A DNA stretch of 64,000 nucleotides, taken from Shigella phage SF1-1. A model generated the notes under the pieces. The model was not told the DNA's origin, made no database searches, and saw only the letters and a list, made by a program, of their open reading frames with translations. The position numbers and the translations under genes were made by a program. Where the stretch lies: sequence record PQ571307; one strand, given 5' to 3'. Below, one piece after another: positions 143 through 9,101 of the stretch (within the stretch, counting starts at the first letter, position 1; the number at the start of each line of letters is the position of its first letter).

Positions 143-469
143 TCAACCAATTATTTCTTCTGCTACACGTTCTTTTACCCAGTTCACACGATCCACATTC
201 AAATGACAACGGCTTTTTTCCGCTTCTAAGGTGTACTCTCCAAAATTACTGTTGAAAGGCAACACCATAACCAAATCTTTGAGGTAGAACTGCTCATGCA
301 TTTCATCCAGTACAGGTTCGTATCGTTCGCTTTCTCCTATGTCGTAAAAATCATAAAGGTTCGTGCACAAACCTGTGCAACGGGTGAACGGTTCACCTTC
401 AGGAGCACCAGCTTCCAACCATGCCAAATACGTGCGGTAAAATGTTAATAGTTCTTCGCTCATTTCCAC
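143..469 (-). CDS. hypothetical protein, paralog family A (FY..Y..W..GAP..PF..GLC...HLN..R..WVK)
   Basis: 108 aa ORF; shares a conserved motif backbone with ORFs 902-1228, 4135-4449 and 8727-9101. Confidence 0.6.
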   Translation of the reverse strand: MEMSEELLTFYRTYLAWLEAGAPEGEPFTRCTGLCTNLYDFYDIGESERYEPVLDEMHEQFYLKDLVMVLPFNSNFGEYTLEAEKSRCHLNVDRVNWVKERVAEEIIG

Positions 470-672
470 TCTCCTTCGTGATAGTAAACCTCAAAAGAAT
501 AGTAAGTGAACATGCTCATTGTAACACCTGCCATTTCTGGATCAAAGGGGGTGTTGTTATACATGTCAACTACTGCCTGACCCGCTGCTTTGGCATGTGC
601 TGCTGAATCACAGGCACAAACATCTTTCTCCCACGGAAACTTGCCATCATACTTAAGACGGACAATCCACAT
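460..672 (-). CDS. hypothetical protein
   Basis: 70 aa ORF, overlap-coupled in minus-strand operon. Confidence 0.45.
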   Translation of the reverse strand: MWIVRLKYDGKFPWEKDVCACDSAAHAKAAGQAVVDMYNNTPFDPEMAGVTMSMFTYYSFEVYYHEGEWK

Positions 673-674
673 GC

Positions 675-902
675 TTATTCCTCCATCTCAAACCATTCAG
701 GGAACACTTTATGGAAGACACAGGTTGTTTCCAAAAGGAATTCCAATTCTTTTTCCAGATCTGCGTTCCAATCGTGCACTTTAACATTGATTGCCAATGC
801 ACTTGCACGGCGACTTAATTCTTGACAGATTGGATCACGCAGAACTATTGAGTCGTAAAACTGACAAACAGCCTCAAGTTCATACCAGTTATAATCCGAC
901 AT
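675..902 (-). CDS. hypothetical protein
   Basis: 75 aa ORF in minus-strand operon. Confidence 0.5.
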   Translation of the reverse strand: MSDYNWYELEAVCQFYDSIVLRDPICQELSRRASALAINVKVHDWNADLEKELEFLLETTCVFHKVFPEWFEMEE

Positions 903-1228
903 TATTCATCCTCCTCTGCAATACGATCTCTTACCCAATTAATCCTGTCCACGTTCAGGTGACATACCTCTGCATCTGATTCTAAGACATATGCATCGTA
1001 GTTCTCATTGAAAGGGAGTTCTTGACTCAACCCTTTGTAGTAAAACTGTGAGTGCATTTCGTCTGACAAGGTTGTTATAAGGAGATTGTAGCCATCTGCG
1101 TGCACATAATCGAACAAGTTGGCACACAAACCGCAATCTCGCCGAAAAGGTTTACCATCAGGAGCACCAACATCAATCCATGCTAGATAAATTTTATAAA
1201 ACTCCATCAACCCTGCGCTTGTTTTCAT
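902..1228 (-). CDS. hypothetical protein, paralog family A
   Basis: 108 aa; same motif backbone as 143-469; true start may be internal Met at 1207 (MEFYKIY). Confidence 0.6.
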   Translation of the reverse strand: MKTSAGLMEFYKIYLAWIDVGAPDGKPFRRDCGLCANLFDYVHADGYNLLITTLSDEMHSQFYYKGLSQELPFNENYDAYVLESDAEVCHLNVDRINWVRDRIAEEDE

Positions 1229-1466
1229 TTAGCCACCTCGTTAGTTTTTCTTGCTCTTTGTTTGCGCGTTCTAAGCTTCTAAACTTTAAACAAAGGGAAC
1301 GAGAATCCCTACCCATGCACAAGCTTTCATCTAAGCTGTGCTCCCCAACCAACCAAAGAGAATATGTTTGAACATCTAACCCATAGTTTCTGTCTTTCCA
1401 TAATCTCACCCCAAGAACATCAAAAGGCGCTTCCGCGACTAAAGAAAGAAACCGATCTTTATTCAT
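1194..1466 (-). CDS. hypothetical protein
   Basis: 90 aa ORF directly downstream of a sigma70-like promoter at 1498-1525. Confidence 0.45.
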   Translation of the reverse strand: MNKDRFLSLVAEAPFDVLGVRLWKDRNYGLDVQTYSLWLVGEHSLDESLCMGRDSRSLCLKFRSLERANKEQEKLTRWLNENKRRVDGVL

Positions 1467-1497
1467 ATTACACCACCTTGCTCACGTTGATAATGTA

Positions 1498-1525
1498 TGT
1501 ATACCATACATAAAATAAATGTCAA
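1498..1525 (-). promoter_or_regulatory. sigma70-like promoter (TTGACA-16-TATACA) with -10 embedded in palindrome ATGTATG..CATACAT
   Basis: Reverse complement reads TTGACA, 16 nt spacer, TATACA; inverted repeat overlaps -10 (operator-like). Confidence 0.5.
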
Positions 1526-1528
1526 GGC

Positions 1529-6862: not shown

Positions 6863-7321
6863 TTAAACAAAAGATACGCCGATGGTAGCAACAACCAAAC
6901 GTTTATAAACTTCAACCTCTTCTGTAGGATTAGCCATTTTATGCTCTGCTGCTTCTTTCAAAGCTTCTTCATAACTTTCAAATCCAGAAATACAGGTGTC
7001 ATCAGTCATTACAACATACCACTCTTCTTTTGTTGTATCAACAGGTTCTTCTGTGTGAGCTTTAAACCACGAAGCACGAACACCACAGTCAACAAAATAA
7101 TCTATATGGGCAGAATTGATTATGTAACGATCCCCATCACTAGCAGTGATAATACCGTCTCTCCCTATCACAACAATTGACAAGATATTACCATTTGCAT
7201 CAGTGCTCAACACCTCGAAAAAATTCTCTCCAATGATAGCAGCAATACTGTTATCAAAGGTAGAATATAATCGCATATAATCTTCATCCTGGAAACGGTA
7301 GACATGACCTTCTTTAAACAT
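6863..7321 (-). CDS. hypothetical protein
   Basis: Start set at Met 7321 (MFKEGHV) which removes the overlap with 7314-7508. Confidence 0.5.
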   Translation of the reverse strand: MFKEGHVYRFQDEDYMRLYSTFDNSIAAIIGENFFEVLSTDANGNILSIVVIGRDGIITASDGDRYIINSAHIDYFVDCGVRASWFKAHTEEPVDTTKEEWYVVMTDDTCISGFESYEEALKEAAEHKMANPTEEVEVYKRLVVATIGVSFV

Positions 7322-7508
7322 GATGTGCTCCTTCTTGTTCAAGAGTAAAAGGAATGATTTCACCATAGCTGTATTGCATGGCATTCACTTCTGCTTCTGC
7401 ACGTTGTGCTAGTTCTAATGTTGCACAGATCTTGTAAGGAACAGTGCTGCATTGGCTCCAACCTGGGGTGTTCTTAGTCACTAAATATACAGTAGTTCCT
7501 TTATTCAT
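7314..7508 (-). CDS. hypothetical protein
   Basis: 64 aa ORF. Confidence 0.45.
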   Translation of the reverse strand: MNKGTTVYLVTKNTPGWSQCSTVPYKICATLELAQRAEAEVNAMQYSYGEIIPFTLEQEGAHHV

Positions 7509-7962
7509 AACTTTCTCCTCCTAGTTCATCATACCATTTCAAAGCGTCTTTTGGAAGCATACCAAAATCTTCTTTCAGTTCTTTTTCAATCTCTTCTTGC
7601 ATTTCCATCAGCATTTTCAGTTGACGGACTTTTTTGTGCATAGCCACATTCCTTTCATTAAGGTTTGTCACTACATTATTTGCACGACTCGGTGGAAATG
7701 ACAAAGGTTTCACGGGAAGATAATCTTCGATATTATCTAGTGCGTTACGAAAATTATGATCCAAGAAACGCACATCCACACGATTGTAATCGGCAGCTAC
7801 AACAGTGAACACTTTAAACGGCACATTGGATAAAGTATGTTGCACACAGACAGTACCCATATTACCTTCAATTTTACTATTAACTTCCAGCAAACCTGTA
7901 TGAGCACTAACATAATCGTGGACACATTGCACATAAGCTGCCAGTATAGTGAATTGTCTCAT
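7501..7962 (-). CDS. hypothetical protein
   Basis: 153 aa ORF. Confidence 0.55.
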   Translation of the reverse strand: MRQFTILAAYVQCVHDYVSAHTGLLEVNSKIEGNMGTVCVQHTLSNVPFKVFTVVAADYNRVDVRFLDHNFRNALDNIEDYLPVKPLSFPPSRANNVVTNLNERNVAMHKKVRQLKMLMEMQEEIEKELKEDFGMLPKDALKWYDELGGESYE

Positions 7963-8207
7963 TTTCTACCTCCCCATAATGCTAACATTTTATTGAAAAT
8001 GGAAACGCGTCGTGCGCGAGATGCCATATCATAATTCATTCTTTCTGTCTCTGCAAGAAATTGATCTACTGTAATCAACGCTTCTGTCTTCTCTTTCAGA
8101 GTTTGCATATTCATCCATTCACATTCAGAGTACCAATTATCGAAATACAAACTATCAAGAAGATCCATTGCTGCTTCGTTCTGTTGTGGTGTGATCATTG
8201 CACACAA
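7959..8207 (-). CDS. hypothetical protein
   Basis: 82 aa ORF. Confidence 0.45.
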   Translation of the reverse strand: MCAMITPQQNEAAMDLLDSLYFDNWYSECEWMNMQTLKEKTEALITVDQFLAETERMNYDMASRARRVSIFNKMLALWGGRK

Positions 8208-8210
8208 CCT

Positions 8211-8432
8211 TTAATAGACAATTTCATATTCATCACGAAGGAAAACATACTCACCTCCTTCAACAGTATCCCCTTCTTCCCATTTCCAACCTTGCACATG
8301 GCTCATCGTTGTGAACTGCACGTAGGCATTTCTGCCATAACCAATATTTGCATCCAGTGTAACAGGGAAATCTACATGAAGCAATCCTAAGTAACCACAA
8401 TTATGCTCAATACGAATTTTACAGATCATCAC
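8211..8432 (-). CDS. hypothetical protein, paralog family B
   Basis: 73 aa; tandem with 8419-8667, related to 3518-3739. Confidence 0.55.
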   Translation of the reverse strand: MMICKIRIEHNCGYLGLLHVDFPVTLDANIGYGRNAYVQFTTMSHVQGWKWEEGDTVEGGEYVFLRDEYEIVY

Positions 8433-8667
8433 TCGTCTCCTCTACAATCGTATACTCATGAGAGAAGAAACTATAATCATGACCTTCTTTCGTATCTTCC
8501 TCATCCCACCACCAGCCTTCCACTTGTATCATAGTTGAAAATCGCACATAGGCAAGCCCCTTGTCACCCAGTTTAGCATCAAGGATGAGTGGGAATGTTG
8601 CACCTTCTAATCCCTCATACCCACACGGATCTTCTGTACGAATTTTCATGCGTTTCATGCTATGCAT
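8419..8667 (-). CDS. hypothetical protein, paralog family B
   Basis: 82 aa; tandem duplicate. Confidence 0.55.
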   Translation of the reverse strand: MHSMKRMKIRTEDPCGYEGLEGATFPLILDAKLGDKGLAYVRFSTMIQVEGWWWDEEDTKEGHDYSFFSHEYTIVEETSDDL

Positions 8668-8726
8668 TCCAATCTCCTCATTAGCTGTTTGTTATGCGCG
8701 GTATGCAAACTATCATACAGACATTT

Positions 8727-9101
8727 TTATTCAATGCAAGCATTATTTGCATCTTCAATTCTGTCTTTCACCCATTGAAGACGTAACGTGTTGGTATGAC
8801 ACGCCAAGTTTATACACTCTGAAAGGTAATCCATGCAATCTGCATTGAACGGAAGATTGTAGTCCAGCCCTGCACATGTAAATTGTTTCCTCATTTCATA
8901 TTTCAAACGGTCTAACAAATGATCACGCCATCTTCTATCTTCTTCTCTGGTTGTCTCACCGACAAAATCATCTACATAATCTACCAGACAACCACATAAG
9001 CCACTCGTTGTGCGATTCATTGCAGGATAGTTGGCAATCCATGCTTTATAGAATCGAAGCAATACTACACTGCTCAACGGAACATTTTTACTCTCTTGCA
9101 T
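8727..9101 (-). CDS. hypothetical protein, paralog family A
   Basis: 124 aa; RFYKAWI...GLCGCL...LPFN...HTN.LRLQWVKDR matches family A backbone. Confidence 0.6.
   Translation of the reverse strand: MQESKNVPLSSVVLLRFYKAWIANYPAMNRTTSGLCGCLVDYVDDFVGETTREEDRRWRDHLLDRLKYEMRKQFTCAGLDYNLPFNADCMDYLSECINLACHTNTLRLQWVKDRIEDANNACIE

Follow-up and report, generated by a model that had tools for sequence, protein, structure and literature searches.

A multi-copy family of small acidic proteins resembling coliphage N4 gp3 near the probable genome terminus of Shigella phage SF1-1

The host-takeover module of phage SPO1, the pre-early genes of T5 and the class I genes of T7 are terminal host-takeover or early clusters of large virulent phages, in which small terminal genes present in several copies are a familiar feature. 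In a 64,000-nucleotide stretch of Shigella phage SF1-1 (sequence record PQ571307; the whole stretch is called the window here) we observed a block of small genes that contains four copies of one gene family (family A, copies A1 to A4) and three copies of another (family B, copies B1 to B3). Both were already known as families of hypothetical proteins in PHROGs, annotated in more than 100 genomes. The block resembles the clusters of SPO1, T5 and T7, and also that of N4, in being a dense array of small, mostly acidic open reading frames (ORFs) at a terminal repeat, read inward from the genome end. It differs from those of SPO1, T5 and T7 in that there is no sequence relationship with them and that the window genes, presumably early by their position, lie just outside the repeat and not within it.

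Family A can be linked to gene product 3 (gp3) of coliphage N4. A profile built from 121 members of the family scored 71 bits (E 3e-23) with N4 gp3, 72 bits with gp5 of phage JG068 and 57 bits with gene 8 of Achromobacter phage JWAlpha, which its own annotation likens to phAPEC8_0044 and N4 gp3. N4 gp3 (YP_950481.1) keeps GLC, PFN and CHLNxxRxxW as the window copies do, and is similar to them in size (about 105 amino acids) and in its place near the left genome end. However, N4 has one copy where this phage has four and its relatives up to ten, and N4 gp3 is without the E56/Q60 pair of most family A members. PHROG 2510 (related PHROGs 6418, 27059 and 2176; pVOG VOG7392), to which the window copies belong, is likewise N4 gp3-like and, as N4 gp3 itself, carries no function assignment, so that membership points to no mechanism. 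Judged from these sequence comparisons, family A is an N4 gp3-like domain.

The homologs occupy comparable places in their genomes. N4 gp3 (positions 1214-1528) sits between gp1/gp2 and gp15/gp16, all four of which are early products, and the promoters of the N4 virion RNA polymerase are confined to the left end (PMC4496689). JWAlpha gene 8 lies at 2409-2738, JG068 gp5 (2224-2613) lies downstream of annotated host promoters and upstream of the primase gene, and in other N4-like genomes the family A gene is found 2-6 kb from the left end. Both the N4 gp3-like genes and the window block are thus placed in early or terminal genome regions of virulent phages. The preliminary description had called the window genes early, and this holds as far as position goes, given that they lie beside a terminal repeat and that N4 gp3, JWAlpha gene 8 and JG068 gp5 are found in early regions.

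The seven genes, as delimited in the preliminary description, are exact ORFs, all on the minus strand (Table 1). The four A proteins are true paralogs, with pairwise BLASTP identities of 30-51% (E 3e-8 to 2e-38) and Smith-Waterman scores that lie 14.6-60 standard deviations above those of 500 shuffles, none of which reached the observed score. All of them match phrog_2510 (E 9e-25 to 5e-31, profile positions 4-113), with weaker matches to PHROGs 6418, 27059 and 2176. When all 487 window ORFs of at least 35 amino acids were searched with an unfiltered hmmsearch (--max), exactly four family A and three family B copies were obtained, the next score being about 6 bits; the two families are mutually unrelated (z = 0.1). 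The motif first quoted for family A is complete in A1 to A3 and partial in A4, which lacks GAP...PF and keeps only FY, W, GLC and H.N..R..WVK. A motif of the form GLC ... PFN ... H/Y-x-N-x-x-R-x-x-W-V is found in all four window copies. The proteins of both families are acidic, with isoelectric points (pI) of 4.05-5.2 and net charges of -4 to -14.

Table 1. Coordinates of the repeated genes and of other features of the window, with pooled ratios of non-synonymous to synonymous substitution rates (dN/dS) among orthologs
Feature	Coordinates	Strand	dN/dS	Remarks
Family A copy A1	143-469	-	0.19	108 amino acids; sequence used for the structure model; phrog_2510
Family A copy A2	902-1228	-	0.35	108 amino acids; 51% identity to A1; phrog_2510
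Family A copy A3	4135-4449	-	0.01	104 amino acids; strongest conservation of all copies; 70 synonymous vs 3 non-synonymous differences; phrog_2510
Family A copy A4	8727-9101	-	0.24	124 amino acids; first gene inward of the terminal repeat; hmmsearch 184 bits
Family B copy B1	3518-3739	-	0.21	73 amino acids; dispersed from B2/B3; found in every relative examined
Family B copy B2	8211-8432	-	0.0	73 amino acids; 14-nt overlap with the end of B3
Family B copy B3	8419-8667	-	0.19	82 amino acids; tandem with B2
22 neighbouring genes			0.04-0.48	
B2/B3 locus in relatives	L006 8526-8756; L007 19904-20134; L008 7642-8080; L009 8786-8998			Alternative allele states (coordinates of the related loci; L006 is ETEC-TG)
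ORF-free region	9102-10726			1.6 kb; separates A4 from the following gene; minus strand rich in A and C
Equivalent of the Schickermooser 329-bp direct terminal repeat	9386-9714			Maps 9714 to 9386, inside the ORF-free gap
About ten regulatory cassettes	11100-16900	-		Promoter, GC-rich stem-loop, ribosome-binding site, small ORF
Two unrelated small ORFs (12193-12414, 12489-12656)	12193-12656	-		Shared translation-start cassette only
Tandem paralogs 26373/26412-26720 and 26720-27025	26373-27025	+		E 2e-12, z 27; both phrog_7812
Paralog of 44957-45226	43591/43657-43935	+		E 3e-10, z 21; both phrog_11278
Paralog of 43591-43935	44957-45226	+		phrog_11278

With ORFs this short in an AT-rich region, similarity of a purely compositional kind, or ORFs that are not genes, might be suspected. 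No evidence for such an artefact was found, and we regard it as practically ruled out by the shuffle z-scores of 14.6-60, by ortholog dN/dS values well below 1 with many synonymous changes, by 586 homologous clusters at E ≤ 1e-10 together with a confident AlphaFold2 model for family A, and by the annotation of the same genes in more than 100 GenBank genomes. Both multigene families are therefore real and old, and their products are small, acidic and cytoplasmic.

To determine how widely family A is distributed, 1.84 billion representative proteins were scanned exhaustively with HMMER, which retrieved 1,485 clusters at E ≤ 1e-3, including those at the stricter threshold given above. In 15 of the best 150 clusters, two to three stretches of one polypeptide matched the domain. 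Multi-domain members include a protein of Citrobacter phage Tr1 (two domains) and proteins of the Burkholderia jumbo phages BcepSaruman and BcepSauron (three), and each repeat of such proteins retains Cys, PFN and N..R; in a protein of Escherichia phage Av-05 the domain is fused to DUF551. Named members come from phages, apart from one labelled E. coli, and the E. coli-labelled entries sit on phage-sized contigs; the clusters are apparently all of phage origin and cover N4-like, phiKMV-like, T1-like, phi92/phAPEC8-like and jumbo types. By tblastn, the family was located at 624 places in 245 phage records, comprising phages of Escherichia, Klebsiella, Rhizobium, Achromobacter, Salmonella, Erwinia, Ralstonia, Pseudomonas and Delftia. 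A second, word-indexed homolog search with the 121-sequence profile gave fewer matches than the first, and back-translated pattern scans of GTDB genomes and of IMG/VR gave 1 and 2 loci, respectively, with a pattern so narrow that the result is no evidence on absence from bacteria. Taken together, these data show that the family A domain is widespread in early regions of virulent phages of Proteobacteria, often as multiple genes or fused domains.

Among 121 diverse single-domain sequences, C35, P71, F72 and R94 are invariant, and L7, F10, Y11, G33, L34, E56, Q60, F61, L66, N91, W97 and V98 are at least 90% conserved (N91, Q60 and E56 at least 93%); H89 is conserved in 79%, the rest having mostly Tyr. 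The alignment shows a near-universal motif, GLC ... PFN ... (C)H/Y-x-N-x-x-R-x-x-W-V, in a domain of about 100 amino acids. The AlphaFold2 model of A1, obtained with a 30-sequence alignment (predicted local distance difference test, pLDDT, 92; predicted template modelling score, pTM, 0.85), shows a bundle of five helices, which span residues 5-19, 34-41, 47-63, 76-84 and 92-107. Its structural neighbours are only uncharacterised phage proteins in BFVD, and searches of the PDB with sequence profiles of A and B returned nothing at E ≤ 10; the predicted fold is, as modelled, unrepresented among solved structures. Pfam, NCBIfam and PADLOC contained no relative of the seven A and B proteins or of 10-13 distant homologs, the sole hits being a sub-threshold match to YaeQ and the DUF551 fused to one homolog. 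In the literature searched, we did not find a description of the likeness of family A to N4 gp3, of its breadth, of its apparently novel fold or of its invariant site.

Family B is narrower. Its three copies are true paralogs, with B3 and B2 in tandem as had been proposed (identity 37-51%, E 1e-11 to 3e-21, z 19-34), and all match phrog_15322. The family is limited to Stephanstirmvirinae (111 records), and its AlphaFold model reached a pLDDT of 50. An allele at least 90% identical to B3 was found in only 3 of the 111 phage records, and the tandem B3+B2 state in the window, ZCKP1 and EF1-1. Most relatives carry at this locus a single divergent allele of 76 amino acids, which has in common with B3 only the first ~30 nt and with B2 the last ~22 nt, and phiWec179 has yet another allele. 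The single gene of most relatives was considered as a simple B3/B2 recombinant; this was rejected, because only its ends agree with B3 and B2, and it represents a third divergent allele. True chimeras with the N-terminal part of B3 and the C-terminal part of B2 do occur in metagenomes (P0040, P0042). The locus shows cassette-like allele swapping among close relatives: where the tandem pair is not present, a single divergent allele stands in its place, of which there are at least two, with the gene ends conserved. In PNJ1809-36, a 1-nt insertion shortens the B protein to 70 amino acids, which may reflect a pseudogene or a sequencing error.

The position of the block with respect to the genome end was deduced from related records. 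In that of Schickermooser (NC_048196.1), the first 329 bp are 100% identical to the last 329 bp; the record of Mt1B1_P17 ends at window position 9714, and several other GenBank records start or end near it. The shared record ends and the 329-bp repeat place the physical terminus within the ORF-free region at 9102-10726. This region is 89-97% identical in most relatives, with lower values in the lineage of phiWec179 and IMG/VR, and holds short tandem repeats of 7-24 nt; no Rfam family matched it. A packaging site, an origin or a promoter region are candidate roles. Just outside the terminal-repeat equivalent, at 9735-9830 on the minus strand, we also noticed two adjacent copies of the arrangement GGGGGCGAA, 15-20 nt with a short palindrome, ATGTTGAGCA.

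The block from 9101 to 1 starts 285 bp inward of the terminal repeat and reads inward, in the order A4, B3, B2 ... A3 ... B1 ... A2 ... A1. Genes in these leftmost ~9 kb are tightly packed, overlaps of a few bases are common and nearly all products are acidic; the A and B genes are presumably transcribed inward as operon-like units. From this arrangement we infer both an early timing and the injection polarity of the block. That family A stands first at the terminus was not found described in the literature searched, nor was the mode of variation that follows, by gene content and not by point evolution.

Mapping of both families in ten related loci showed that the number of family A copies varies considerably: 3 in G1, 4 in the window, ASO2A, PNJ1809-36 and ZCKP1, 5 in ETEC-TG, 9 in phiWec179 and 10 in an IMG/VR genome. 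These copies fall into at least 13 subfamilies with a mutual identity of at most 51%. A1 is absent in G1 and A2 in ZCKP1, and A1 to A4 and B1 are each present in 7-9 of the ten loci. At the A4 locus there are one, two or three tandem family A genes, depending on the relative. In ETEC-TG (9376-9720), the junction of A4 with the ORF-free region is occupied precisely by a whole extra family A gene of 114 amino acids, which is also present in ESCO13 and Schickermooser and is missing from the window, where the boundaries are clean at 9101/9102. The paralogs are no nearer to one another than to homologs in unrelated phage families: A2 is about 44% identical to homologs in T1-like phages as compared to 34-41% with A3 or A4, and the paralogs are therefore ancient or horizontally exchanged. 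These results bear out the duplication and divergence that had been proposed for the block, in the sense that the families are real, some copies are in tandem and the copy number ranges from 3 to 10 among close relatives.

The proposal that the copies are under diversifying selection fared differently. Pooled Nei-Gojobori (NG86) estimates of dN/dS, in which each window gene was compared with 1-9 orthologs (4-9 for A1 to A4 and B1) and the comparisons are not phylogenetically independent, were 0.01-0.35 for the family A genes, not above the range of the neighbouring genes. The A3 protein is nearly invariant among orthologs although dS is 0.2, and the rare amino-acid changes among orthologs cluster at the N-terminus and in the loop between helix 2 and helix 3. 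These pooled estimates give no indication of pervasive diversifying selection; purifying selection maintains each paralog, and diversity arises from gain, loss or replacement of whole genes and not from fast point evolution.

A variable array of this kind recalls the gene-amplification accordions, of which poxvirus K3L is one. Among phages, amplification of tifA of T4 against toxIN is an accordion of a counter-defence gene (bioRxiv 10.1101/2022.04.14.488369). The likeness lies in tandem arrays of small genes that vary among close relatives, with 1-3 genes at the A4 locus and 1-2 at the B2/B3 locus. However, accordion copies are recent and nearly identical, whereas tandem neighbours here are 42-51% identical and each is under purifying selection. 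Near-identical tandem copies, the mark of recent amplification, were not found, though copy number varies. The low identity of the tandem genes, together with purifying selection, therefore points to old fixed paralogs with differential loss rather than to ongoing amplification.

As to function, we propose, tentatively and at slightly less than an even chance, that family A proteins are small acidic early effectors that bind to targets in the host or to ligands, and that paralogs and fused repeats are specificity variants or oligomer partners. The A and B proteins would be made early in infection and would act without enzymatic activity, binding host proteins or small ligands through a putative polar cluster formed by C35, E56, Q60, N91, R94 and H/Y89; the paralogs would differ in specificity, possibly as homo- or hetero-oligomers, at which the fused forms with two or three domains hint, and the proteins would in this way take over host functions or counter host defences. 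The acidity of the proteins argues against nucleic-acid binding and fits protein-binding inhibitors. In the way they work, Acb2, Tad1/Tad2, Ocr and AsiA would be comparable, as small, acidic, early and often oligomeric proteins that neutralise a host component; yet these proteins are in the PDB and show no sequence or fold similarity to family A. More generally, no similarity in sequence or fold was found to characterised proteins, including the anti-defence families Ocr, ArdA/ArdB, Acr, Acb, Tad and Gad. Several points weigh against the effector proposal. The literature yielded no transcript data for this phage group and no function or timing data for N4 gp3, phrog_2510 or phAPEC8 homologs, and that this genome end enters the host first is only inferred for the group. 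The dN/dS of 0.01 of A3 and the near-core presence of A1 to A4 in the genus are more like those of housekeeping than of arms-race genes. Moreover, the spatial clustering of the conserved residues is putative, the pocket is only partly universal, as N4 gp3 does not keep E56/Q60, and the combination of an invariant Cys at a helix N-terminus, an invariant Arg and conserved Asn, Gln and Glu residues would suit a catalytic site just as well.

This last point leads to an enzyme domain, in which Cys35, where helix 2 begins, would act as a nucleophile assisted by His/Tyr89, Asn91 and Arg94. Early in infection the enzyme would covalently modify or cleave some host molecule (a protein, a nucleotide or a signalling molecule), and its paralogs and fused repeats would differ in substrate specificity. 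The degree of conservation of these residues, and of E56 and Q60, given above, and the retention of Cys, PFN and N..R in every repeat of the multi-domain proteins are consistent with it, and its conservation in phages whose hosts range over the alpha-, beta- and gamma-proteobacteria suggests a universal substrate and not a strain-specific protein surface. Nevertheless, Tyr replaces H89 in about 20% of the members, N4 gp3 has lost E56 and Q60, the Cys is shifted in JWAlpha gene 8 (DLSGC) and a cofactor-binding motif is absent, so that we consider an enzyme clearly unlikely. The strong purifying selection, above all on A3, and the presence of A1 to A4 and B1 in most related loci would also suit a role inside the phage, in which the proteins would, for instance, assist phage transcription, the start of replication or the protection of DNA ends as cofactors or adaptors, with the copies sub-functionalised; N4 gp3 adjoins gp1 and gp2, which are RNAPII cofactors, and A4 lies directly beside the genome terminus. 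On the other hand, single copies are dispensable in nature, as the lack of A1 in G1, of A2 in ZCKP1 and the 1-3 genes of the A4 array indicate, acidic proteins are improbable as direct DNA binders, and the phages that carry the domain (N4-like, phiKMV-like, T1-like and jumbo) transcribe and replicate their genomes with unrelated machineries. A role of this kind thus seems rather unlikely, and effectors directed at the host are the reading we prefer.

The preliminary description listed further pairs of repeated genes, and of these two consist of real paralogs, one at 26.4-27.0 kb and one at 43.6/45.0 kb. The pair 12193/12489 is not: the Smith-Waterman z-score was 1.3, with 54 of 500 shuffles equal or better, and the two ORFs fall in separate PHROGs (25390 and 13689). 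What they have in common is MITFA and the ribosome-binding region, 87% identical over 30 nt (repeat D14), and the identical 5' end that had been reported arises because repeated cassettes of promoter and stem-loop precede small ORFs in this part of the window. In these cassettes a promoter of the form TTGACA-16 nt-TAxxxT is followed by a stem-loop (GGGCGG...CCGCC) and then by a ribosome-binding site with a small ORF. A promoter scan predicted nine minus-strand sites of the form TTGACA-16/17-TAxxxT from 13.0 to 16.9 kb; the repeat families D1-D8, D11 and D12 lie in the cassette block, D1-D8 in register with the promoter sites, and the annotation of ASO2A carries the same pairs of promoter and 'terminator'. 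The block forms the right-hand end of the packaged genome, with its reading direction towards the terminus. In T4-type phages, promoter-early stem-loop (PeSL) cassettes reportedly mediate the shuffling of early genes. The about ten near-identical units of sigma-70 promoter and GC stem-loop before small ORFs resemble them in arrangement; those of the window are in the right-terminal block and not among the family A and B genes.

Two repeated pairs were absent from the earlier list or remained below significance. Tandem glycosyltransferases of 315 amino acids (48412-49359 and 49367-50311, plus strand; 41% identity, E 1e-75), which the preliminary description did not include, match phrog_7162 and Pfam Glyco_trans_1 and lie within the block for replication and nucleotide metabolism; they may modify DNA or surface glycans. 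The adjacent minus-strand genes 6413-6850 and 6863-7384 both match phrog_3710 (E 9e-7 and 1e-32) and have a common N-terminal MFK..VY.F. As a pair significant by direct comparison they were rejected (BLASTP E 1.1). The record of vB_Ec-G1 calls their homologs 'goF mRNA metabolism modulator', a label for which we saw no support.

With regard to the genomic setting, more than 100 GenBank genomes of Phapecoctavirus match window bases 1-12000 at 95-98% identity, several of them at 96-97%, and the window is thereby placed in this genus, the closest being PNJ1809-36, ETEC-TG and anhysbys; the genus belongs to the Stephanstirmvirinae and comprises phAPEC8-like E. coli myoviruses of about 150 kb. The window carries minus-strand genes, nearly all small ORFs, from 1 to 24 kb, then plus-strand genes for replication and nucleotide metabolism from 24 to 59 kb (among them a UvrD-type helicase, NrdD, TelA, a primase-helicase and DNA polymerase A), and beyond these tail-fibre-like genes on the minus strand. 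No tRNA genes or Rfam families were found in the whole window. Inside the small-ORF block, the minus-strand stretch 19159-21375 encodes a protein that carries two CapR homology domains and, beside it, an AAA ATPase. Records labelled Campylobacter phage B15 and Klebsiella phage ZCKP1 match bases 1-12000 at ~96% nucleotide identity, and Campylobacter phages C3 and A145, Pseudomonas phage PsgM04F and Serratia phage KKP_3264 have protein matches to family A or B; these odd host names suggest a broad host range or doubtful host labels.

In its widest form, the effector proposal would make the N4 gp3-like domain an unrecognised and structurally novel class of phage early effectors, either thiol-dependent enzymes or ligand or protein 'sponges' that use the invariant Cys/Arg site and that, in terminal arrays of 3-10 variants, neutralise several host defences or targets, with family B as a second, lineage-restricted effector swapped as a cassette; this is possible, and we hold it doubtful. 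Should a host-directed function prove true, it would give a role to a domain of about 1,500 clusters, including the long-unassigned early gene 3 of N4. A confident model without solved neighbours, together with four invariant residues, makes family A well suited to structure determination and mutagenesis. The results also correct a common assumption, in that small early genes present in multiple copies need not evolve fast: in these phages the variation resides in gene content near the terminus, and each copy remains conserved.

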